Below are positions 2,956 through 25,722 of a DNA stretch of 64,000 nt, piece by piece. The notes beneath the pieces were generated by a model, which saw only the letters and a program-made list of their open reading frames with translations, did no database searches and was not told the origin of the DNA. Origin of the DNA: Ekhidna sp. Its GTDB lineage: Bacteria; Bacteroidota; Bacteroidia; Cytophagales; Cyclobacteriaceae. A program made the position numbers and the translations under genes. The stretch spans positions 2,741,171 to 2,805,170 of the forward strand of contig NZ_OZ243102.1 of assembly GCF_965212185.1 (NCBI RefSeq), in the 5' to 3' direction. Numbering within the stretch: position 1 is the stretch's first letter; every line of letters begins with the position of its first letter.

Positions 2956-5184
2956 TTAAAGATTAAGCCAATAAGTTATTTTGAATGTGAGTGCTCGGGT
3001 ACGTGGTTGACCTATATTGAATCCTCCTTCATGGTAAGCAAAGTAGTTATCCGTATAAACAAGGAATATATCTGAGACAGGCTTAAATCTCCATTGAAAA
3101 CGAGTATTGATATTCATGTTTTCAATTTGACTATTGTATTGAATGAAAGTCGTCCAGAAAATCTTCTTTGTGAAGGTAAAATCAAATCTTGGTCCAATCA
3201 AGTAAAGTGAGGTGGTGGTATATGGCTCTGGAAGGAGGATTCGATTTAATGCAAAGTCAATGGAAGTAAAGCCCAATGGCTGGTATCGATAACCCACAGA
3301 TCCTTCCAAATTGATCCGATTTCCATTAAAATATTGACCAGATCTTGTATTTAGTCTAAAGAATATCTTCTTGCGTTGGTCTGATTCATATCGTGCGATG
3401 AACTGGTAATTAGTATACTCAGAATCTGAAGGTAACTCTACTCCTCCAGTACCACTTGGATCAAATGAATCAAATAAATAAGTGTATTGCTTTCTTAGGC
3501 GTGTGAAAAAACTGGAAGTATTCCTAAAGGAAATCTCGTATTGTAAATTGTAATCCCAATCCAAAAATCCATAGGTATCATTACCTACCATATCAAAATC
3601 AAATGCGGGACCATGGCTCTGAATCTTTCCCCTTTCCGGAAACCATATGTATCTAACGGTAGTGGCTAATTGTCTAATATCATTTCTCCTTACAAAACCA
3701 ACTTCCGGATTATAGTCAGCTCCAATTAATTGTGAAAAAATATCTACCGACCATTTCTGGATATCATAATTCATGAAAAAACCTCCGGCATAAGGTGAAG
3801 TAGTAGGTTCTGGACCAAATGTTCGGTGATAGAATGCCTTTCCATTCCAAACATTATTACTGCTTGCAAGGCGATACTCAACCCCAAAAGTTCTATTGAA
3901 CTCATTCAAGGAAGTGGTGTCGTATTCACTGGGTGACTCAAACGTTTGTTTATTTATTGCAAAGAAATTAATGTTTGACCGACTAAAAACCTTCTGTTGC
4001 AAGCTAACCATCGAATAATTGTACGAGGGTAATCCAATGGAAGCATCTCTCCCGGCTTGCATTGACAAAATTCCTAATCGCAAATCATCGGATACCTTAC
4101 CACTTAAGCGCATGCCGAATGGAATTTGATTTTGAACATTCTGACCTGTCAAAGTATCAATTGCAATTCCAATTCGTCTTGAGAAAAAAGGTCGCGTACT
4201 CCCTGTACCAAAACCTGAAAAAAGGTCTGCATTCTCAAGAAAAAATTGGCGCCTTTCCGGAAAGAAAATTTCAAATCGATCCAGGTTTGTAACCTGTTGA
4301 TCAACCTCCACTTGCGAGAAATCAGGATTTACAGTCACATCAAGATTGAGTCCGGGCGTAACCGCATACTTTATATCAAACCCGGTTGATGGCTTAAAGT
4401 CTTCACCGGTATTTTCTTCAAAATCACGTTGAGTATTGGTGGCAACATAGGGGATCACTGAAATATTGGTTCCTGGTTTTTTTGTTGGTTCATCCCAAAC
4501 TAATTGTCTGTTATTGGCCAAATTGAAAATTGGAAAAGTTCGTCTTACGGGAGACCAGGTGCTTCTTTCAGCATACTCACTATCCACACGATAGAAGTTT
4601 ACCAACCATGAATCAACTCCTTCACTAAATCGAAGTGTTTTAAAAGGAATTGCCATTTCTACTATCCAGTATTTTTCGAATTGCTGAGCTTCTGCATACC
4701 ATTTATTGTCCCAATCCATGCTAAAACTCCCACCTCCAGTACCACCATTAACAATAAGTGCTTCTCTCATCACTCCAAAAGGGTTGACACCAAACAAAAA
4801 GCCGTTGGTACGATCTGAAAAAGGATCTAGAATAACGGAAAAACTATCATTTGCTGCACCTCTAAAATCTCTTCTGAGTGATGGAGTAACATAACCTCTA
4901 GGCTGAGGTAAATTATGCATGACACCCAACACATAGATGTTTTCATCATCATAAAGTATTTTGGCTACTGTCTGCGCTTGAGCAGGAAGTGAATCGGTGG
5001 GGAAATTTTGTGTAAACTGATAGGCTGAATCTGCAAGACTCCAGGCCTGTTCATCCGGGATACCGTCAATCTTTATTTTACCATCGACTTTTTTGATGGT
5101 AATTGACATCCTCTGACCATACCCTGACAGAGAAGTAAGTATCAAAATACAAATAATTAACCCTCTCATATTAAACAGCTGCAA
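2956..5184 (-). CDS. Secreted 742-aa protein, probably an outer-membrane protein with an N-terminal carbohydrate-binding (CBM9-like) region. It resembles the DUF5916-type proteins of Bacteroidetes.
   Basis: ORF track; signal peptide MRGLIICILILTSLSGYGQ; N-terminal KIDGIPDEQAW motif; beta-rich C-terminal half with many aromatic/Gly alternations. The family assignment is from memory, not a search. Confidence 0.5.
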   Translation of the reverse strand: MQLFNMRGLIICILILTSLSGYGQRMSITIKKVDGKIKIDGIPDEQAWSLADSAYQFTQNFPTDSLPAQAQTVAKILYDDENIYVLGVMHNLPQPRGYVTPSLRRDFRGAANDSFSVILDPFSDRTNGFLFGVNPFGVMREALIVNGGTGGGSFSMDWDNKWYAEAQQFEKYWIVEMAIPFKTLRFSEGVDSWLVNFYRVDSEYAERSTWSPVRRTFPIFNLANNRQLVWDEPTKKPGTNISVIPYVATNTQRDFEENTGEDFKPSTGFDIKYAVTPGLNLDVTVNPDFSQVEVDQQVTNLDRFEIFFPERRQFFLENADLFSGFGTGSTRPFFSRRIGIAIDTLTGQNVQNQIPFGMRLSGKVSDDLRLGILSMQAGRDASIGLPSYNYSMVSLQQKVFSRSNINFFAINKQTFESPSEYDTTSLNEFNRTFGVEYRLASSNNVWNGKAFYHRTFGPEPTTSPYAGGFFMNYDIQKWSVDIFSQLIGADYNPEVGFVRRNDIRQLATTVRYIWFPERGKIQSHGPAFDFDMVGNDTYGFLDWDYNLQYEISFRNTSSFFTRLRKQYTYLFDSFDPSGTGGVELPSDSEYTNYQFIARYESDQRKKIFFRLNTRSGQYFNGNRINLEGSVGYRYQPLGFTSIDFALNRILLPEPYTTTSLYLIGPRFDFTFTKKIFWTTFIQYNSQIENMNINTRFQWRFKPVSDIFLVYTDNYFAYHEGGFNIGQPRTRALTFKITYWLNL

Positions 5185-17578: not shown

Positions 17579-19677
17579 CAGCTTAATTGAAGTTTAATGG
17601 TTGAACCTTTTGATAGTCTTCCTCCCGGAGACATGGATTGGGTGGCCACTCGTCCTCTACCTTTTACTTGTACTTCTAACCCTAAATTTTCTAGCACGTA
17701 GATCGCATCACGTAATGTCATTCCACGAACATCCGGCACCACCTCATATTTCACTTTATTTCCTTTCCAATAAACAGCATCGTTTATGACATTTGTTTTC
17801 ACCCATTCTGATTCAGTTTCAGAATGATTGGATATTCCAAACTCGTTGCAAATCATTGTCAACTCATCACGCTTGCCCGCTTTGATGTATGGAAAGACCC
17901 CTGTGATGTAAGAGCGCTCCTGTGTTCCAACTTCATGCATATCAAGCTCTAATGAATAGATCTTATCGGCTATTTCTTTAAAGACCGGAGCAGATACATC
18001 GCTACCGTAGATTTGATACCCTTTTGGATTATCAATAACTACAATACAGCTGTATCTAGGAGCTTCCGCTGGGAAATATCCAGCAAATGATGTGTAGTAT
18101 TCTTTAACGTAACGACCGTTTTTTACCTTTTTAGCCGTACCTGTTTTACCAGCAATTTTGTAGTGACTGTAATTAATGTTTTGAGCGGTACCACGCTCTA
18201 CAACACCTTCCATCATCAACTTAACCTTTCTTAAAGTCTCCTTTGAAGCGATTCGATCATTGATGATTTCCGTATCAAACTCATCAACCATTCGATCCGC
18301 TTTCATGACACCTTTGACAATCATGGGTTTCACCATTTTGCCATCGTTTGCTACCGCATTGTAAAGCGTCAACATTTGCAGTGGCGTCATCTTTAGCTCA
18401 TAGCCATGAGACATCCAAGGCAAACTCACTCCACTCCAGGTACTATCTGATGGATCTTTAATGTAGGGTTTACCCTCACCAACCATTTGAAAATCGAGTG
18501 GTTCATGAAGGTTCATGTGCTTTAAGTAATCAATAAATTTCTCTGGATTGTTGCCGAAATAATGAGAGATCAACTTTGCCACACCAATGTTTGAAGATTT
18601 CTCAAAAACCTCCTGAATAGTCAGCTTACCAAAACCATCAGGCTTATGATCACGCATGGTTTTGTCAAAAAACTCAAGCTTGCCATCACCGGTATCAATC
18701 GAATCATTGAGCTTAATATCAGTTTCCTCCAGCAAAGCAATCATACTTGCCAACTTGAAGGTAGAGCCCGGCTCCCTTGAACCCTGACTGCCCACTGCAT
18801 AATTGTATCTTTCATAGTAATCGCCATCACTGTTTCTGCTGAGATTGGAAATGGCTTTGATCTCCCCGGTCTGAACCTCCATTACTACTGCTACTCCATA
18901 ATCTGCATCATGCTTTTGTAGTTCGTTTAATAAAGCTGACTCAGTTACATCTTGAAGATCTACATTAATGGTTGTCTGGATATCATAACCATCGACTGGG
19001 CGTCTTTCAGTGCCATCATAAATGGGTCTCCAGCCACCACCAGCCATTTTTTGATAAAGTCCTTTCCCGCTAACTCCAGCAAGTTGTTTATTGAAACTAT
19101 ACTCCAGTCCCACAGTCCCACGATCATTGGCATTGACACTGCCGATCGTGCGTATACCTAAATGGGAGAAAGGCAGAAAGCGTTTTTCTACCTTTTCAAA
19201 AATGACTCCTCCTTTTAGCCTACCCTCTTTAAAAAGCGGCCAGTTCTCCATATTCTTTTTATCCTGGTAGCCGATCTCCTTGCGATTAAGAGTCAGGTAG
19301 CGCCGACCCTTCTTTCGAGCATTATCGATCTTCCGTTTGTATTGGGTAGGAGTTAAATCTCCATAATACCTGGAAAGCAGATAACACAGAGAATCAATGT
19401 TGTTTTTATAAAGGCCATTTGATGGTAAATACGGATCCAGCGCCAATCGATAGAATGGAAGTGACGTAGCTAGCAAACTACCATCATCAGCATAGATGTT
19501 GCCACGAGTTGCTTTTACGTTCATCACCTGAAGACCCAGCGTCTCACCCATGCTTCTCCACTTGTCGCCTTCTACGTATTGAACTTTAGCAATACGAAAA
19601 ATCACCGCTCCTGCTACCAGAAAGGTTAGCAAAAAGGCGATACGCACACGTAATACTATGTCTCTTTTGATGCTCAT
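17578..19677 (-). CDS. ftsI: Penicillin-binding protein 3 / FtsI transpeptidase with a C-terminal PASTA domain.
   Basis: N-terminal TM; STFK, SNIG and KTGTA active-site motifs; C-terminal PASTA-like YEVVPDVRGMTLRDAIYVLENLGLEV. Confidence 0.9.
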   Translation of the reverse strand: MSIKRDIVLRVRIAFLLTFLVAGAVIFRIAKVQYVEGDKWRSMGETLGLQVMNVKATRGNIYADDGSLLATSLPFYRLALDPYLPSNGLYKNNIDSLCYLLSRYYGDLTPTQYKRKIDNARKKGRRYLTLNRKEIGYQDKKNMENWPLFKEGRLKGGVIFEKVEKRFLPFSHLGIRTIGSVNANDRGTVGLEYSFNKQLAGVSGKGLYQKMAGGGWRPIYDGTERRPVDGYDIQTTINVDLQDVTESALLNELQKHDADYGVAVVMEVQTGEIKAISNLSRNSDGDYYERYNYAVGSQGSREPGSTFKLASMIALLEETDIKLNDSIDTGDGKLEFFDKTMRDHKPDGFGKLTIQEVFEKSSNIGVAKLISHYFGNNPEKFIDYLKHMNLHEPLDFQMVGEGKPYIKDPSDSTWSGVSLPWMSHGYELKMTPLQMLTLYNAVANDGKMVKPMIVKGVMKADRMVDEFDTEIINDRIASKETLRKVKLMMEGVVERGTAQNINYSHYKIAGKTGTAKKVKNGRYVKEYYTSFAGYFPAEAPRYSCIVVIDNPKGYQIYGSDVSAPVFKEIADKIYSLELDMHEVGTQERSYITGVFPYIKAGKRDELTMICNEFGISNHSETESEWVKTNVINDAVYWKGNKVKYEVVPDVRGMTLRDAIYVLENLGLEVQVKGRGRVATQSMSPGGRLSKGSTIKLQLS

Positions 19678-19688
19678 TTTTTCAAGTC

Positions 19689-19737
19689 AACAGTCGAAAG
19701 TTTTCAGTCGACTGCCAAGCTGTGGACTGTCGACTAA
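19689..19737. repeat. Dispersed CAGTCGA/GTCGAC repeats (CAGTCGAAAGTTTTCAGTCGACTGCCAAGCTGTGGACTGTCGAC) in the ftsI-ftsL spacer.
   Basis: Seen directly; same family as 7052, 10736 and 16055. Confidence 0.5.
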
Positions 19738-19766
19738 TAAGTATTTTGATATTTTTTGCACCGCTA

Positions 19767-20189
19767 TTAATCATCGAATTCTTCTACACTTCTAATTAAG
19801 ACGGGTAACTCCTTACTCTCTTTTAAGCCGAGCTCTGCCGCTCGTTTTGCCACCTCTGACTGTTTGCTTTCATACATGAAATCTGCTTTCAGGGTAGTAT
19901 AATCCGCTCTGAGATCTTCAACTTCTGTTTCCAGGTGGTTGATGTCTCTGATTTTCTTCTCTGCGTAATGGCGGTTGCCGATATACAGCAGACATAAGAA
20001 TGCCAGAAATAGAATTTGGGGAAGAAAACGCACGTGTATCACCTCACTCATGGAAGTGTCCATGCGTAGAAAGCGATTGATGAGACGGAATAAGCCTCCT
20101 CGCTCTTCTCTTTGGGGTAATTTGTAGGTGTTCTTCATCTTTTTAAAGTTTGAAATTTGAAGCTGGGAGTTTGAAGGAATCACTTCCAC
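19767..20189 (-). CDS. ftsL: FtsL-like cell division protein (small bitopic protein; the true start may be an internal Met).
   Basis: Position between rsmH and ftsI; single TM FLPQILFLAFLCLLYIG followed by a coiled-coil-like region. Confidence 0.55.
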   Translation of the reverse strand: MEVIPSNSQLQISNFKKMKNTYKLPQREERGGLFRLINRFLRMDTSMSEVIHVRFLPQILFLAFLCLLYIGNRHYAEKKIRDINHLETEVEDLRADYTTLKADFMYESKQSEVAKRAAELGLKESKELPVLIRSVEEFDD

Positions 20190-20200
20190 CTTCTAGCTTC

Positions 20201-21139
20201 CTACTTCACACTTCTTTTCTTGCCAATACGCAGCTTAGCGCTTCTCGCTCTGCTGTTTTTTTCAATTTCTGCCGCTGTGGGGATGATGGGCTTTCGGTTC
20301 ACCGGGTCTAACACCCTGATTGGATTCCCATAAAAGTCTTTTTCATCGACCCCTTTAATATTTCCTTTGTTTATGAAATTCTTGACTGGCCGGTCTTCCA
20401 ATGAGTGATAACTCATCACCACGAGTCTGCCTTCTGCCTTTAGCACCTCGCCTGCCTGTATCAAAAATTCCCTGAGTGCTTCCATCTCTTCATTTACCTC
20501 AATCCGAATGGCCTGAAAGACCTGTGCGAGGTATTTGAGATCTCGACCTCTCGGAGCATGTTTCAGCGCAATGGCTTTCAATTGCTCGTTGGTCTCGATG
20601 GGCTGGTTCATTCGGAAATTCACAATCTCTCTTGCGAGTGTTCGCGCATTTCTGATTTCCCCGTACGCACTTAAAATATGTATCAGATCCTTTTCCTCGT
20701 ATTCGTTGACTATCTCCCTGGCGCTTTTTGCAGCGGCCTGATCCATACGCATATCCAACACACCTTCTGCCCTAATGGTGAATCCACGCGATGGTTCGTC
20801 AAACTGATGGGAGCTTACTCCCAAATCCGCCAGGATGCCATCTACTTCCGTGATGCCATGTAGTCTGAGGAATTTTTTCAGGTATCTGAAATTTGATTCA
20901 ATAAATGTGAAAGAACATTTTGTGCCCTCCTCCGCTAATGCTTCGGTGAGCCTATCGGCATTTTGTTCAGCATCTTTATCCTGATCAAAAGCAATGAGGT
21001 GGCCGGTAGTCAATTTGTCGAGTATTGCTTTGCTGTGACCGCCACCTCCAAAGGTCACATCCACGTATACTCCATCTGGTTTTATGTCCAGCCCGTCCAG
21101 GCATTCCTGCAACATGACCGGGTTGTGGTACTGACTCAT
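20201..21139 (-). CDS. rsmH: 16S rRNA (cytosine1402-N4)-methyltransferase RsmH (MraW).
   Basis: DVTFGGGGHS SAM-binding motif; position after mraZ. Confidence 0.95.
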   Translation of the reverse strand: MSQYHNPVMLQECLDGLDIKPDGVYVDVTFGGGGHSKAILDKLTTGHLIAFDQDKDAEQNADRLTEALAEEGTKCSFTFIESNFRYLKKFLRLHGITEVDGILADLGVSSHQFDEPSRGFTIRAEGVLDMRMDQAAAKSAREIVNEYEEKDLIHILSAYGEIRNARTLAREIVNFRMNQPIETNEQLKAIALKHAPRGRDLKYLAQVFQAIRIEVNEEMEALREFLIQAGEVLKAEGRLVVMSYHSLEDRPVKNFINKGNIKGVDEKDFYGNPIRVLDPVNRKPIIPTAAEIEKNSRARSAKLRIGKKRSVK

Positions 21140-21158
21140 GGTTTTTTCCTCCCCCTAA

Positions 21159-21174
21159 CCCCCTCCAGAGGGGG
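21159..21174. repeat. CCCCCTCCAGAGGGGG hairpin in the mraZ-rsmH spacer.
   Basis: Seen directly; related to the hairpins at 8474-8489 and 25743-25760. Confidence 0.4.
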
Positions 21175-21199
21175 AAATATTTCAGGCTTCATTACCAAA

Positions 21200-21643
21200 C
21201 TATTCATCCAGGAATTTCTGTGCCAGCTCTGAGTATTCGGTATCGTCACTAATCATGTGCTTATCAAATACTTCAGGATTCCACATTTCAATATAGTTGC
21301 CCGTGCCGATGAGGAGTGCCTCCTTTTCTATCTGTGCATGAGCGAGCATTTGCTTGGGGATCAAAATGCGATTAGCATTATCCAGCTCCACCTGTGCGAT
21401 GCTCCTGAAAAATGTCCTTTTCAACTTCCGTTGTTCAGGATCGAATTCACTAAGTGATGAGATCTTGTGGTGTATCTTTTTATACTCCACCATTGGGTAG
21501 AGGATTAGGTTCGGCTCGAATCCCTTCCGAATTACTAGTTCTGCAGTGGAGACCTCCGGAAGGTTGTTCTTGATCTTTGCAGGCAAGACCAACCTTCCTT
21601 TAGTATCCAACTTACACTCATACTCGCTTGTAAAAAACGCCAT
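21200..21643 (-). CDS. mraZ: Transcriptional regulator MraZ. The likely true start is the Met at 21643, because the ORF-track N-terminal extension looks non-native.
   Basis: Two MraZ half-domains with the DxKGR motif (CKLDTKGRLVLPAKI); first gene of the dcw cluster. Confidence 0.85.
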   Translation of the reverse strand: MAFFTSEYECKLDTKGRLVLPAKIKNNLPEVSTAELVIRKGFEPNLILYPMVEYKKIHHKISSLSEFDPEQRKLKRTFFRSIAQVELDNANRILIPKQMLAHAQIEKEALLIGTGNYIEMWNPEVFDKHMISDDTEYSELAQKFLDE

Positions 21644-21870
21644 ACTGAGCCTTGAAAAATATAAACCACCGAGACAAATGTAATCAACTTTTCCTATTTT
21701 CCTCCACTTTCCCCCACTTTCACACACAAAATAGAGAAAAATGTGAATTTGAGCATTAAATCAATGATTTTAAGCAATAAATGAATGTTCTGTGAATGAG
21801 TGAGTTATGGAAATAAGACGGCTATGCCACTATTTTTGAAGATTTTTTGGAATTTTGAGCTTGTATATTG

Positions 21871-21909
21871 GAATTTGGGATTTTTGGTGGGAGATGGTGG
21901 GGAAAATGT
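21871..21909. promoter_or_regulatory. Candidate MraZ operator: three TGGG(A/G) direct repeats (starts 21876, 21888, 21898) with ~10-12 bp period, ~230-270 bp upstream of mraZ.
   Basis: GGAATTTGGGATTTTTGGTGGGAGATGGTGGGGAAAATG seen directly. MraZ proteins bind TGGGN direct repeats with a 10-bp period (established for E. coli and Mycoplasma). Spacing and orientation here are imperfect. Confidence 0.25.
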
Positions 21910-22053
21910 TGAATTCGGAAATAATGAATTAAGAATTTTGGGATTTGTCAAAGAAAATAATGAGAATATGTGCAGTTAAATAGCAATGATATAAGTGCAA
22001 CATCAAGGCCTGAACGCTCTAACGAAAGTAGTTTGTCAAACCATAAACAAGTT

Positions 22054-22083
22054 TTTGGTTCGTGGGGACACGACCCGAGGCAG
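22054..22083 (+). repeat. Copy 1 of a ~35-bp hairpin element, consensus TTTTCGGTTCGTGGGGACACGAACCGAGGCA.
   Basis: GGTTCGTG/CACGAACC stem with GGGA loop; three same-orientation copies at 22054, 23074 and 23287. Confidence 0.6.
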
Positions 22084-22297
22084 TAAAATTGGATTAAAAG
22101 GATTTATGAACTGAATGATAGATTAGGTTTTAAATACATCCACAACAATAAAGATGATGGAGGGTATTATTATAACAATAGATACAGTTCAGAAAAATGA
22201 CTATTGAAGAAGCACATAAACGTAACCTAACGTTAAAGGAGTATTTGAAGCTATTAGGTTAATTACCGTAGATTTGCTTACCCATAACTAATTCGTA

Positions 22298-22897
22298 ATG
22301 AATAAATTACCATTTCTATTTCTATTCTTTGTTTTGTTTTCTTGTGAAGAAAAGGATACTATAAACTTTGAGTATGGACAAAAAGAATACGTATATGATA
22401 GAAGTGGGAAACAATATGATCTTGATCCGAACAAAATATACTGTGGTCCGGGTTTTGGAAGAAAGTTTTGTCGCTTTTTATATAAGTATGAGGAGACAAT
22501 CTGGGCAGATGCAGAAAATTACTATAGCGACTTTTCAGATATAAAATTTTCAGGCTTTGCAGACGATCTATATTTTCTATCCTTCTTAAATCTTGATAGT
22601 ACTACTTCATATTGTGAAGGATGGAAATTAGGTGAAACAACTTACGATGGAATAAAATGGAATATTGAACTCAAAAAAGATGAGGATGATGTTTTGTGGT
22701 TTGGGTATGATTATTATGGGATTAGTGAAGAAATTGAATATTCTATAACTTATAAATATGAAGTAATTGATGGTTTACTTCACTTTTCAAGTTCTGAAGA
22801 TCAAACATTTATTTTCCATCCTTCTGAAAAAAATTATTCAGAAGATTCTGTTGAGACAGGCGAAATAATTTTCCTGGAAGGATGTAAGTTTTTCTAA
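22298..22897 (+). CDS. Hypothetical lipoprotein, 199 aa.
   Basis: ORF track; signal peptide plus lipobox LFFVLFSCEE; Y/D/E-rich mature part; flanked by the hairpin elements. Confidence 0.55.
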   Translation: MNKLPFLFLFFVLFSCEEKDTINFEYGQKEYVYDRSGKQYDLDPNKIYCGPGFGRKFCRFLYKYEETIWADAENYYSDFSDIKFSGFADDLYFLSFLNLDSTTSYCEGWKLGETTYDGIKWNIELKKDEDDVLWFGYDYYGISEEIEYSITYKYEVIDGLLHFSSSEDQTFIFHPSEKNYSEDSVETGEIIFLEGCKFF

Positions 22898-23073
22898 TTT
22901 TTCCACTGAAAAAGATTTATCCAACTGTAAATAATATCAGTTGCGGAAGATGTCGAATCACGTCCGACATGACACAGTTATAGTCTTAAGAATGACTTAA
23001 TTGGAGCGAGCATTTCATTTTGGTGTTAATCGTCTTGCCATGGTTTGTGTCTTCACAAATCATTAAACCAACT

Positions 23074-23106
23074 CTTTCGGTTCGTGCGGACACGAACCAA
23101 GGCAAT
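23074..23106 (+). repeat. Copy 2 of the hairpin element (CTTTCGGTTCGTGCGGACACGAACCAAGGCAAT).
   Basis: Perfect 8-bp stem seen directly. Confidence 0.6.
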
Positions 23107-23286
23107 ATGAGTCCATGAATAAAGATTATTCGCATTAAGATAGTTTGGTATGTTGTGCTTCGGCCTTACTCTTTCTTAGCATATAGTTGTCGCTTAAAAT
23201 CTTCTTCATAGTAAGTGCTAACCGAGTTTTGAATGAGTTCAGACTCAGCCAATGTCCATCTTTCAAAAGCCACTAAATAAGACCCA

Positions 23287-23321
23287 AGTTTTCGGTTCGT
23301 GGGGACACGAACCGAGGCATT
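23287..23321 (+). repeat. Copy 3 of the hairpin element (AGTTTTCGGTTCGTGGGGACACGAACCGAGGCATT).
   Basis: Perfect 8-bp stem seen directly. Confidence 0.6.
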
Positions 23322-23399
23322 AGATGAAATTGGTTTGAAGAATAAATTGAAATGAATATACTAAATTGAAAAGGCCTAACCATAAAAGAACTCTATACT

Positions 23400-23882
23400 A
23401 TGACACCTTTCATTATCGGAAACATTCAATTCACATTATCGCTCATTGTTTACTCCATGATTGCCGTTTGGTATGTGCAGCCTAAGCTCAAACAAATGGA
23501 ATGGAATAAGGCAATTGTTCCATTGCTTTTGGTACATGCTTTTAGATATGGCCCACTCACACTTCTAATGCCGGGTCAGGTTTCCAATGAGGCGCCTTTA
23601 GATGTGGTACAGACCATTGCCTATGGTGATTTGGCTTCAGGAATTCTGGCGATTATAACAGCTTTATTGGTTTGGAATAAAGCGGCAGGCGCCAAACTTG
23701 CTATCTGGCTATTTACTATTGTTGGTTTTGGAGATGTTGCGTTAGCTTCAGCCAAAGGTATAGGTGCCGGACTTCTTGATATACCAATGGGCTTCAATCT
23801 CTACATCCTTAATTTCTATGTTCCGATGTTGATTGTTACTCATTTCATGATTATTCTATTACTAACGAAAAGGAGTACTTAG
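23400..23882 (+). CDS. Hypothetical integral membrane protein, 160 aa with ~4 TM helices.
   Basis: ORF track; hydrophobic segments; followed by a hairpin and T tract at 23896-23917. Confidence 0.55.
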   Translation: MTPFIIGNIQFTLSLIVYSMIAVWYVQPKLKQMEWNKAIVPLLLVHAFRYGPLTLLMPGQVSNEAPLDVVQTIAYGDLASGILAIITALLVWNKAAGAKLAIWLFTIVGFGDVALASAKGIGAGLLDIPMGFNLYILNFYVPMLIVTHFMIILLLTKRST

Positions 23883-23895
23883 CATGAAGCAAACG

Positions 23896-23917
23896 ATTCC
23901 TTGCGGGAATGATTTTT
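23896..23917 (+). terminator. Intrinsic terminator (ATTCCTTGCGGGAAT followed by GATTTTT) after the membrane-protein gene.
   Basis: Hairpin plus T run seen directly. Confidence 0.45.
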
Positions 23918-23980
23918 AAGAGATTCTGTGATTAATAATCATCAAGGACTGCTCATAGAAATCTTTTGGAAGTAATCAAT

Positions 23981-24030
23981 CTGACCAATAGTGCTTCCTG
24001 AGTCTGGTCTTAGCGTCTCGTTAAGATCGC
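23981..24030. repeat. Composite repeat: GACCAATAGTGCTTCC motif followed by a degenerate copy of the GGTCTTAGCG...CGCTAAGACC palindrome.
   Basis: Seen directly; related copies at 24333-24355 and 24517-24539, and GACCAATAGAGCTTCC at 24567-24582. Confidence 0.5.
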
Positions 24031-24332
24031 TAATCCAAAAACATCAAATCAACCCTTTCTCGCCACAATAATCTTTGCACTGTGCTATAACCATTCACGC
24101 GGCTCATCCACGAAACCTGCCACCACAGGAAACCAACAATCCTTTCTCTTTTTGACAATATTTTAGACTGTCGATGAAATACCCTTGTATTCATTTCTAA
24201 TAAATACATCAATCCAATGAATGACTGTAAATGTTACAAAATTGAATTTATCCTGATGCCGGATGGTATATTTTCTACCCATACTATCACAACTGATATA
24301 TAACTACATTTCTGGAAATACCTATAAGGTTT

Positions 24333-24355
24333 GGTCTCAGCGAGACGCTAAGACG
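24333..24355. repeat. Palindromic element GGTCTCAGCGAGACGCTAAGACG (copy 2).
   Basis: 10-3-10 inverted repeat with one mismatch. Confidence 0.55.
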
Positions 24356-24516
24356 AGAGAAGTCTATTCAGATTCCCAAGTCTCATTCGTACCTCATTCG
24401 CAAGGGAATAGGGATTGGGGTTATGCCGTATTCCCTTGGGAGGACAATTTTAAATTGTCCGAGTCATGGGAATCTCAGGTCCTTAGCTGATAAGCAACTT
24501 TGGTGATGTTGGGTTT

Positions 24517-24539
24517 GGTCTTAGCGAGACGCTAAGACC
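24517..24539. repeat. Perfect palindrome GGTCTTAGCG-AGA-CGCTAAGACC (copy 3), immediately downstream of the SRPBCC gene.
   Basis: Perfect 10-bp arms seen directly. Confidence 0.6.
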
Positions 24540-24563
24540 AATGAAGATTTCGAAGTATAACGA

Positions 24564-25037
24564 TCAGACCAATAGAGCTTCCAACTGATTACAAGCCAGC
24601 TCCCATCCTTCGGCCATGCCCATCTCGGCCATTTGTTTAAGGGCCTCTGCTGAAGCAAATGTGGTAATGGATGTAACGGTGGTCGATGATCCGTTTGAGT
24701 CAAATTTCACTGACATTTGCATCGGTGGAATTCCCGTTGATGCATTGCCATCCTCATCCACAAAATAGTCTTCCGCTTCCAGTCGCTTATGCTGCTCTAT
24801 TTTCAGATAGTCCATGCGCCCTCGATGCACATCCCCTTCCGGTCCTACCATGTTATAAATCCAGTAGCCACCTTCCTTAAAATCCATTTCATCTATTTTG
24901 CAAGTGTATGGTTGTGGTGCCCACCACTGGCATAGGATTGCAGGATCGCTCCATACTTTTTCTACGGGTGCATCAAAGGTGCGCACGGCAATCAACCGGT
25001 TATTTTCCAGGTCTTCGGTGAATGTAGTTTTGTTCAT
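24564..25037 (-). CDS. SRPBCC-superfamily protein (Aha1/activator-of-Hsp90-ATPase-like or polyketide-cyclase-like), 157 aa.
   Basis: ORF track; typical ArsR-partner SRPBCC sequence (VEKVWSDPAILCQWWAP...); 13-nt gap from the upstream ArsR gene. Confidence 0.75.
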   Translation of the reverse strand: MNKTTFTEDLENNRLIAVRTFDAPVEKVWSDPAILCQWWAPQPYTCKIDEMDFKEGGYWIYNMVGPEGDVHRGRMDYLKIEQHKRLEAEDYFVDEDGNASTGIPPMQMSVKFDSNGSSTTVTSITTFASAEALKQMAEMGMAEGWELACNQLEALLV

Positions 25038-25049
25038 TGTTGTAGGTGT

Positions 25050-25364
25050 TTATTTCATATTTTTTAATAGGTCATCCAATTGATCAAATCGATCTCGCCA
25101 GAGCTGCTTAAAAGGCTCCAGCCATTCGATGATCTCCAATAGTTTTTCAGGTTTAATGTGACAGTATCGTTCCCTTCCTTCTTTGGAGATAGAAATCATG
25201 TCACACTCCTCCAGCACTTTCACATGCAATGAAACCCCCTGACGTGAGATTGAAAACTGCTCTGCAAGCGCATTCAGATTCTTCGGTTTTTCAATAAGAG
25301 CAGTTAGAATCTCACGACGAGTGGGATCGGCAATGGCTTGAAAAATATCTCTACGTTGCTCCAT
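25050..25364 (-). CDS. ArsR/SmtB-family winged-helix transcriptional regulator. The ATG at 25364 is likely the start, because the ORF-track start at 25373 is a TTG.
   Basis: HTH signature DPTRREILTALIEKPKNLNALAEQFSISRQGVSLHVKVLEE. Confidence 0.85.
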   Translation of the reverse strand: MEQRRDIFQAIADPTRREILTALIEKPKNLNALAEQFSISRQGVSLHVKVLEECDMISISKEGRERYCHIKPEKLLEIIEWLEPFKQLWRDRFDQLDDLLKNMK

Positions 25365-25374
25365 AATATGCAAG

Positions 25375-25420
25375 TAAGTGCTTGCAAATATATACGCAAG
25401 TGTTTACTTGCGCAATATTT
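25375..25420. promoter_or_regulatory. Two imperfect palindromes (GCAAGTAAGTGCTTGC and CGCAAGTGTTTACTTGCG) immediately upstream of the ArsR gene; a candidate autoregulatory operator.
   Basis: Inverted repeats seen directly. ArsR/SmtB proteins typically bind 12-2-12-type inverted repeats overlapping their own promoter. Confidence 0.35.
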
Positions 25421-25514
25421 TGTCAATAAAACCTTAGAACAGTATTATGAAATGTGAATGAAAAAGTAAGGACATAAAAAAACCATCAACTAAGATGGCA
25501 TCAGTCAATTATCT

Positions 25515-25722
25515 GTCCTGTCGCTGCAGGCTGAGAATTAGCACCAATTATCACACGCTGGTGATCTGGTTGCCAAGGCTGCATGGGGCCCAGTCCCTTC
25601 ACCTTTCCTGATAATTACATTAAAAGTACACATGCAGATTGTAAATAGTTCAAATGCAAATACTTAAATAAGAAATCATAACAATGGATTAATTGTGAGG
25701 CAATGTGAATTTGCCTTTTTTC
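25515..25722 (+). ncRNA. Candidate structured RNA: a GC-rich segment (25515-25610) with partial TPP-riboswitch (THI-box)-like primary sequence, followed by an intrinsic terminator at 25698-25722.
   Basis: GGCTGAGAA...TATCAC...GATCTGG...GCCA...GGGG strings resemble E. coli thiM aptamer segments (CUGAGA, GAUCUGG, P5-like CUGG..CCAG). The terminator is AGGCAATGTGAATTTGCCT followed by TTTTTT. No full fold could be verified by hand. Confidence 0.3.

Follow-up and report, generated by a model that had tools for sequence, protein, structure and literature searches.

Hairpin repeats beside the dcw cluster of an Ekhidna genome are very probably REP elements of a Bacteroidota REP/RAYT system

The systems closest to the repeats described here are those of TnpA-Y1 subclass 2.6, which equals group 5 of Bertels, is found mostly in Bacteroidetes and has a median length of 179 aa (Quentin et al., 2018; PMC6006769). 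The transposases of this subclass, which belong to the tyrosine transposases associated with repetitive extragenic palindromes (REPs) and are known as REP-associated tyrosine transposases (RAYTs), have the motifs NH[LIV]H, WQ and YIH[QN]NP (PMC6006769, Table 1) and are flanked by atypical hairpins without GTAG, of which more copies are present elsewhere in the genome, the absence of GT[AG]G being the norm for subclass 2.6 REPs; the entries for Cytophaga hutchinsonii in Table S1 of the same study are CCATGGTCTGTGGCACACAGAAC and GGTGGTCTGTGTGCCACAGACCATAGT. For group 5, Bertels et al. (2017) gave approximately 31 genome-wide occurrences per replicon of the flanking 16-mers, which indicates a modest abundance. 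The locus investigated here is a 64,000-nucleotide stretch of Ekhidna sp. (NCBI RefSeq assembly GCF_965212185.1, contig NZ_OZ243102.1, positions 2,741,171 to 2,805,170 of the forward strand), referred to below as the window, in which copies of a short hairpin element are clustered just outside the division and cell wall (dcw) gene cluster. An initial annotation, made from the sequence alone, had described three copies of this hairpin in the same orientation and had proposed a small repeat family resembling REPs or miniature inverted-repeat transposable elements (MITEs), a conserved RNA structure of the 5' untranslated region (5'-UTR) or a protein-binding site. Enzymes of the HUH (histidine-hydrophobic residue-histidine)/Y1 type, such as TnpA-REP and the TnpA of IS608, bind hairpins in single-stranded DNA (ssDNA) and cleave via a phosphotyrosine.

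Investigation of the window by a pattern search allowing up to two mismatches revealed three + strand matches to GGTTCGTGNNNNCACGAACC, at 22057-22076 (one mismatch, CACGACCC), 23079-23098 and 23294-23313; when the window was shuffled 100 times with its dinucleotides preserved, no match appeared, the chance expectation being none. The + strand unit has the layout nn-GGTTCGTG-RRGA-CACGAACC-n'n'-GGC and a length of 27 nt, at 22055-22081, 23077-23103 and 23292-23318. Sequence reading and the pattern search thus confirmed the coordinates, the consensus and the loops (GGGA, CGGA and GGGA) of the three copies first annotated, but their count was incomplete: an unfiltered scan of the 64 kb with a covariance model, R1, detected one more, diverged copy at 23037-23063 on the - strand (match span 23030-23071, 24.9 bits, E=2.6e-6). 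The 8-bp stem of the initial annotation holds for the core, whereas the full stem has 10 bp, comprising the 8-bp core and two basal pairs that are variable yet complementary, and an unpaired GGC is present 3' of every copy. The copies, all of which are intergenic, are as follows:

22055..22081, + strand: putative REP copy a, TT-GGTTCGTG-GGGA-CACGACCC-GA-GGC, with one stem mismatch and one G-T basal pair
23037..23063, - strand: putative REP copy b, diverged, AT-GATTTGTG-AAGA-CACAAACC-AT-GGC, with one compensated C-G to T-A change and one mismatch
23077..23103, + strand: putative REP copy c, TC-GGTTCGTG-CGGA-CACGAACC-AA-GGC, with one basal mismatch
23292..23318, + strand: putative REP copy d, perfect consensus, TC-GGTTCGTG-GGGA-CACGAACC-GA-GGC
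23037..23103, no strand assigned: head-to-head doublet of putative REPs, copy b then copy c, with a 13-nt spacer, GCC/GGC tags outermost and no gene between; resembles a REPIN (REP doublet forming hairpin)

Under R1, copy a scored 41.3 bits (E=4.6e-12), copy c 42.9 bits and copy d 47.6 bits (E=2.8e-14), and no convincing score besides those of the four copies was obtained anywhere in the 64-kb window by the unfiltered scan. Folded as ssDNA, copies a to d have energies of -5.3, -5.4 (z=-2.7), -9.0 (z=-3.9) and -12.2 kcal/mol (z=-7.3), respectively, and the b-c doublet has a joint fold of -17.1 kcal/mol (z=-4.6); z-scores across the four copies range from -1.5 to -7.3, the weakest copy, a, being indistinguishable from shuffles by energy alone. 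When the three + strand copies are aligned with their flanks, similarity is limited to approximately 30-46 nt, TTTYGGTTCGTGSGGACACGAMCCRAGGCA. Copies a and d (22040-22115 and 23277-23360), both of which precede open reading frames (ORFs), share extra likeness outside the repeat, …CAAGTTTT upstream and AAATTGGnTTnAA downstream, which may represent a slightly longer duplicated unit or merely AT-rich upstream sequence.

The hairpin is not unique to this locus. An exact scan for the 8+8 palindrome, with one genome per species, returned at least 119 stretches, and the figures given for the family come from the matches listed. Among these, 104 carry Bacteroidota titles, including many Pedobacter, Chitinophagaceae, Cyclobacteriaceae and other Cytophagales as well as single Flavobacterium and Bacteroidales metagenome-assembled genomes. 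Counting copies in the genome and in relatives, as proposed with the initial annotation, was the appropriate check. The other 15 matches listed (Actinomycetota, Collinsella, Chloroflexota and others) mostly differ in the loop and appear to be ordinary terminators or palindromes formed by chance. Copies with the exact core were found in at least six separate 8-kb blocks of Pedobacter sp. UC225_65. Only three hairpin matches were detected among 2.9 million viral contigs, the element being almost absent from them. Two short contigs with good copies of the Bacteroidota repeat were assigned to a 'Bordetella parapertussis' bin (L003) and an 'archaeon' bin (L045) and are probably mis-binned Bacteroidota contigs. 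One copy, along with its flanks, is shared by two Pedobacter species at orthologous positions (L013 at approximately 6058 and L100 at approximately 4066), which suggests stable, long-term vertical persistence of individual copies.

Oriented by their loops, with loop positions 3-4 (GA) fixed by the orientation filter, the copies have a sharp asymmetric consensus, n-T-GGTTCGTG-RRGA-CACGAACC-A-n'-GGC. The three positions of the tag 3' of the 10-bp stem are G in 89, G in 96 and C in 79 of 115 copies. The outer basal pair is represented by UA (32), AU (21), GC (12) and CG (6), and the next pair by UA (63), CG (12) and AU (11); overall, 95.6% of the cells are paired, compared with 29-40% when the 3' partner is slid, and the observed covariation was reached by none of 500 shuffles. 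R1, which was built from the alignment of the oriented copies, recovers extra diverged copies in the same loci, and its 150 best matches have double-sided changes at five of the ten pairs. An independent regular-expression scan detected the compensated core variants GGTCT/AGACC, GATTC/GAATC, GTTTC/GAAAC, GGCGC/GCGCC, GGTAC/GTACC and GGTGC/GCACC. The hairpin is thus selected as a structure, and the very strong conservation of its core sequence points to sequence-specific recognition of the hairpin, not mere stability of the structure. Some loci contain full hairpins followed by tandem units made of the 3' half and the tag (GACACGAACC-nn-GGC) with a period of approximately 20-24 nt (L064 at approximately 3351-3430 and L089 at approximately 3300-3440, also L015, L041, L058, L072 and L084); 27 of 162 half-sites have no exact TTCGTG 5' arm, some of these having a diverged arm. 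The arrays may be products of slippage or footprints of cleavage near the loop.

Regarding the position relative to genes, crude ORF maps of all loci placed 133 of 165 oriented copies outside ORFs. Between co-directional neighbours, 36 of these intergenic copies of other genomes are sense and 38 antisense, and convergent contexts are enriched (30) and divergent ones depleted (9). The nearest gene end lies at a median distance of approximately 85-120 nt, and the genes next to the copies have no function in common (SDR, hydrolase, AHSA1, ParE and others). Close pairs are most commonly of the -+ arrangement (16, of which 13 have gaps of 7-32 nt), with 8 +- and 23 tandem pairs also present; clusters reach nine copies, and 59 of 95 sources (94 loci and the window) have a single oriented copy. 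This extragenic, orientation-unbiased pattern is that known for REPs.

The hairpin is physically linked to RAYT genes. In at least eight loci a gene of approximately 185 aa is flanked by inverted copies, and in multi-copy loci this gene of approximately 185 codons sits between a - copy and a + copy; the Pfam family Y1_Tnp (IS200-like) was matched by two of the genes. Searching with these two proteins by tblastn revealed homologues in 7 of the 119 loci ascertained by the hairpin. The loci L023, L068 and L027 have the order GCC-nn-hairpin (TCYY loop), ORF, hairpin (RRGA loop)-nn-GGC, or a variant with one base of the tag changed, and L074 has the same flanks, consisting of the downstream copy and an exact upstream match. 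L110 has a RAYT pseudogene with an exact copy upstream only and diverged hairpin-like copies downstream, L101 has a more distant homologue (32% identity) with a hairpin copy approximately 290 bp downstream, and L003 has only a 41-residue RAYT fragment. In an ascertainment-free test, the contigs of three homologues were fetched by protein similarity alone and scanned with R1. In that of Niabella drilacis (L120), a - copy of 45.2 bits ends 10 bp upstream of the gene and a + copy of 47.1 bits starts 2 bp downstream, and in L121 the flanks of the RAYT gene score 36.7 bits (-) and 38.3 bits (+). The locus L171, ascertained via a second repeat family (see below), likewise has a RAYT gene of the first clade flanked by the hairpin of the first family in the same orientation.

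The proteins are 185-186 aa long and contain the motifs MPNH(V/I)H(F/L)IW (MPNHVHFIW or MPNHIHLIW), FW(Q/R)RDS and YIH(N/A)NP. In the PDB they match a single entry by sequence, 4ER8, the Escherichia coli TnpA-REP (E=6e-4), with the HUH and Tyr motifs aligned. Over their full length they match the NCBIfam model NF047646, 'REP-associated tyrosine transposase' (E=1e-19 to 1e-27, 69-96 bits), three of five proteins being above its curated cut-off of 80 bits, and NF033573 gives a weak match. A database search returned approximately 1,800 homologues, several of which have been named 'REP element-mobilizing transposase RayT' by the Joint Genome Institute. Judged by motifs, length, host phylum and type of REP, the enzyme would fit RAYT subclass 2.6, i.e., Bertels group 5; the motifs of subclass 2.4 overlap with these, but occur with canonical GTAG REPs.

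A hairpin repeat that lies outside genes, its arrangement in inverted doublets and the presence of inverted copies on both sides of a single HUH/Y1 nuclease gene are the defining features of a REP/RAYT system, and the hairpins of the window are very probably a cluster of REP elements of such a system in Bacteroidota. The REP- or MITE-like family initially proposed is supported by the dispersal of the hairpin over Bacteroidota and by the RAYT genes between inverted copies. Several observations weigh against this interpretation. No RAYT gene was found in the 64-kb window by tblastn, one RAYT locus (L122/L123) is flanked only by weak R1 variants (19-30 bits), and some RAYT homologues fall below the NCBIfam or Pfam cut-offs. 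The canonical GTAG or GT[AG]G tag of REPs, as known from Proteobacteria, is absent, with GGC in its place. Related Ekhidna contigs (39 kb in total) have no copies, and the four of the window all lie within 1.3 kb, for which reason the Ekhidna copies could be relics or could have arrived along with a variable segment. Regarding filled and empty sites, the copies are located in a segment that is replaced wholesale in related Ekhidna; no clean pair was found, so that mobility is inferred and not observed.

The unit consists of the 10-bp stem with its conserved core (GGTTCGTG/CACGAACC) and two freely covarying basal pairs, the RRGA loop and the unpaired GGC two bases past the core stem; in the proposed mechanism, the cognate enzyme would be a single-domain HUH/Y1 nuclease of approximately 185 aa with an IS200-like fold. 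By analogy with E. coli TnpA-REP and IS608 TnpA, the RAYT would bind the hairpin when it is extruded in ssDNA, on the lagging-strand template at replication forks, may read the stem together with the flanking tag, which here is GGC or GCC and lies two bases away from the core stem, and would cut and rejoin DNA via a 5'-phosphotyrosine intermediate. Single REPs and, more efficiently, head-to-head doublets (REPINs) would as a result spread into intergenic DNA. The head-to-head doublet corresponds to the RAYT flanks minus the gene and is thus likely to be the efficient, REPIN-like mobile unit. Secondary effects on transcripts, e.g., protection of 3' ends, are possible.

The hairpin copies of the window share a strain-variable segment with a second putative REP family:

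24006..24028, - strand: second-family putative REP copy 1, GATCTTAACG-AGA-CGCTAAGACC-AG
24333..24355, + strand: second-family putative REP copy 2, GGTCTCAGCG-AGA-CGCTAAGACG
24517..24539, + strand: second-family putative REP copy 3, GGTCTTAGCG-AGA-CGCTAAGACC, with a perfect 10-bp stem
21993..24579, no strand assigned: strain-variable segment of 2.6 kb between mraZ and the AHSA1/ArsR genes, containing all copies of both families and ORF-poor DNA

A 19-nt exact scan of metagenome contigs revealed at least 120 stretches with the second family, which is a widespread repeat unrelated to the first and has the consensus R-GT-CTTAGCG-AGA-CGCTAAG-AC-Y-AG with a covarying basal pair. A RAYT gene of another clade lies in each of L152, L176, L164, L149 and L185, preceded by the second-family repeat in its TCT-loop orientation and, in the loci that include the downstream flank (all but L176), followed by a copy or near-copy in the AGA-loop orientation. 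The RAYT frame of L152 contains an internal stop and this copy is probably a pseudogene. The second clade is approximately 27% identical to the first, has the motifs SH(V/I)H, WQ and YIHNNP and matches NF047646 with 95.8 bits.

Regarding the segment itself, two contigs of related Ekhidna (L125/L126, 84-90% nucleotide identity) have blastn homology only to window positions 19000-21992, which cover mraZ and the sampled end of the dcw cluster, and 24580-25651, with AHSA1 and ArsR; both blocks are syntenic in these contigs. Between these blocks L125/L126 have a different sequence of approximately 3.3 kb with a 192-aa ORF, a PAP2-family gene and an AraC-family gene, and no REPs were found at this equivalent locus; a third Ekhidna lineage (L124) has yet another gene content there. 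The hint of repeated insertion in the initial annotation is reasonable in this light, all copies being located in a segment that differs between Ekhidna lineages. The segment's ORFs 22298-22897, with a lipoprotein-type signal, and 23400-23882, hydrophobic and membrane protein-like, have no Pfam match. Copy a lies approximately 60 bp inside the left edge and second-family copy 3 approximately 40 bp inside the right edge; REPs near both edges might have a role as gene-replacement junctions beside the dcw cluster. The segment also has a 20-nt direct repeat (23979-23998 and 24563-24582; ATCTGACCAATAGTGCTTCC and ATCAGACCAATAGAGCTTCC), the second copy of which overlaps the 3' end of the AHSA1 gene (24564-25037, - strand), suggesting a duplicated gene-end remnant inside the ORF-poor region 23900-24560. 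A 35-aa ORF (MAFERWTLAESELIQNSVSTYYEEDFKRQLYAKKE; 23166-23273, - strand) is located between copies c and d and may be a gene remnant; the small ORFs listed between these two copies, this one included, gave nothing interpretable.

Proteobacterial REPs usually differ between species. A stronger version of the REP interpretation would regard the present family as unusual among REPs, with a near-invariant core, loop and tag over at least three orders, the 3'-half arrays as cleavage footprints and REPs as gene-replacement junctions near the dcw cluster, and is rather unlikely. If it were true, near-invariance over orders would imply either a very old and tightly constrained recognition of the hairpin by the RAYT or an ongoing horizontal spread of REPtrons, and the RAYT would cut in or near the loop, a geometry unlike that of the GTAG-guided E. 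coli TnpA-REP.

Among alternatives to a REP origin, a role at the RNA level, in which the host would use the hairpin as a 3'-end-forming or mRNA-stabilising stem-loop or as a terminator without U-tract, possibly on top of a REP origin, is quite improbable. The enrichment between convergent genes and the short median distance to the nearest gene end agree with such a role, a GC-containing stem of 10 bp would stall 3' exonucleases in both orientations, and E. coli REPs have, in some accounts, been reported to affect mRNA decay and termination. However, a T-tract follows no copy, a structural terminator would not hold an identical stem, RRGA loop and GGC tag over several orders, and the inverted copies around RAYT genes would be left unexplained. 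A simple intrinsic terminator, which the initial annotation had also discounted, was rejected: the tails GGCAGTAAAA, GGCAATATGA and GGCATTAGAT have no T-tract and the terminator scan flagged none of the copies.

It is very unlikely that the lipoprotein and membrane-protein genes are carried by a small mobile cassette, of an integron-attC-like or composite-transposon-like kind, with the hairpins as its recombination or boundary sites. The confinement of all copies to a 2.6-kb segment that differs between Ekhidna lineages, with REP-like palindromes just inside both of its edges, is what such a cassette would show, but no integrase or recombinase was found among the ORFs and Pfam results of the segment, its two edges have different repeat families, and elsewhere the element is scattered among ordinary housekeeping genes. 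Moreover, the copies around the lipoprotein ORF (+ ... -) have the opposite arrangement to the flanks of RAYT genes. The bracketing of a lipoprotein gene, as first described, is correct for the locality, but a functional unit is not supported; it would be a local accident, the segment being both rich in REPs and variable.

A cis-regulatory RNA in the 5'-UTR, bound by a protein or ligand and controlling ORFs 22298-22897 and 23400-23882, is extremely unlikely even though these ORFs follow copies a and d on the same strand, at distances of 216 and 81 nt, and the stem covaries. A messenger leader would be strongly sense-biased and promoter-proximal, whereas the copies are antisense as often as sense and rarest in divergent regions, where promoters lie, which largely refutes this possibility. 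Downstream of copy c there is no gene, copy b lies on the opposite strand, and the neighbouring genes have no common function. The Rfam cmscan suggested with the initial annotation, run on 21700-24000 at E<=10, found no matching family, only chance-level matches to small nucleolar RNAs and microRNAs, none with E<0.39.

The binding site also proposed there would, as a palindromic operator in double-stranded DNA for a dimeric transcription factor or another host protein that is not a RAYT, account for the perfect 8+8 palindrome with its 4-bp spacer and strongly conserved sequence, yet it is scarcely credible, given that the element is asymmetric, with the RRGA loop and a one-sided GGC in fixed relative orientation, that the basal pairs covary, which selection on half-sites in double-stranded DNA would not require, and that the element avoids divergent promoter regions, forms arrays, tandem as well as inverted, with as many as nine copies and flanks RAYT genes. 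Clustered regularly interspaced short palindromic repeats (CRISPR), an integron attC site and the hairpin of a diversity-generating retroelement were rejected, as spacers of regular length are lacking, neither an integrase nor a reverse transcriptase lies nearby, and the tandem units follow one another head-to-tail with nothing in between.

Thus, a conspicuous repeat is explained as ordinary selfish or domesticated DNA and is removed from the candidate regulatory RNAs; elements of this kind are already in the literature, and the finding is real, of an ordinary known kind and opens no new kind of biology. The gain is a covariance model, along with a sharp consensus, of a Bacteroidota REP family, in a phylum from which only manually found 'atypical secondary structures' had been available so far, and both families of the window are tied to distinct RAYT clades. 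These can be of use in genome annotation, in reducing false calls of small RNAs, terminators and riboswitches, and in choosing substrates for the biochemistry of non-GTAG RAYTs.

Regarding the comparison with known systems, the ends of IS200/IS605 elements, e.g., IS608, similarly have subterminal hairpins that are recognised in ssDNA by a Y1 HUH transposase and a short conserved outer sequence, but the present family has no TnpB partner, its flanking hairpins are identical inverted copies and not distinct ends, and most dispersed copies are geneless. The CGTC-tagged REPs, which occur in some Bacteroidetes (Di Nocera et al., 2013; PMC3733652), are alike in having stems of 8-9 bp, loops of 4-5 nt, a short unpaired tail and mostly head-to-head dimers; the Ekhidna family, however, has neither CGTC nor GTAG and flanks RAYT genes in other genomes, whereas the CGTC repeats were reported without a transposase. 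The REPs and bacterial interspersed mosaic elements of E. coli with TnpA-REP (4ER8) share with it an extragenic palindrome of 20-40 bp, inverted doublets and clusters, as well as a single-copy HUH/Y1 gene between inverted REPs whose HUH and YIxxNP motifs align. The E. coli REP has GTAG at the 5' foot, while the Ekhidna family has a GGC that follows the core stem after two bases (on the other strand, GCC-nn at the 5' side), no conserved stem bulge and a conserved RRGA loop, and the proteins are alike only at E=6e-4. In the REPINs of Pseudomonas fluorescens (Bertels and Rainey, 2011; PMC3116915), as in the Ekhidna family, an inverted REP pair with a short spacer is the commonest close arrangement and mirrors the RAYT flanks, and the pair at 23037-23103 of the window fits this arrangement; the spacers of the Ekhidna family are, however, much shorter (mostly 7-32 nt), each REP is a full hairpin, and singles are in the majority.

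The subclass 2.6 systems agree with the present family and the RAYTs that it flanks in other genomes in phylum, signature, a length of approximately 180 aa, the lack of GTAG and the flanking hairpins. A search of the literature with the two arm sequences returned only unrelated papers, mostly concerning primers, and GGTTCGTG...CACGAACC is not present in the supplementary REP tables of PMC6006769. The C. hutchinsonii entries of that study have a layout in common with the Ekhidna family, CC-AT-GGTCTGTG...CACAGACC: CCAT-GGTCTGTG-GCA-CACAGAAC is close to GCC-AT-GGTTCGTG-TCYY-CACGAACC, and the GGTCT/AGACC stem variant is present in both. Similarly, the second family of the window (CTGG/CTAG-tagged, with a TCT/AGA loop) resembles the Aequorivita and Flexibacter entries of Quentin et al. 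(PMC6006769). The structures in PMC6006769 were termed 'atypical' and 'weaker' and came from manual inspection only, with no family consensus, whereas the Ekhidna family has a sharp consensus and adds to that description a covarying 10-bp stem, a 3' GGC tag and a near-identical sequence over several orders.

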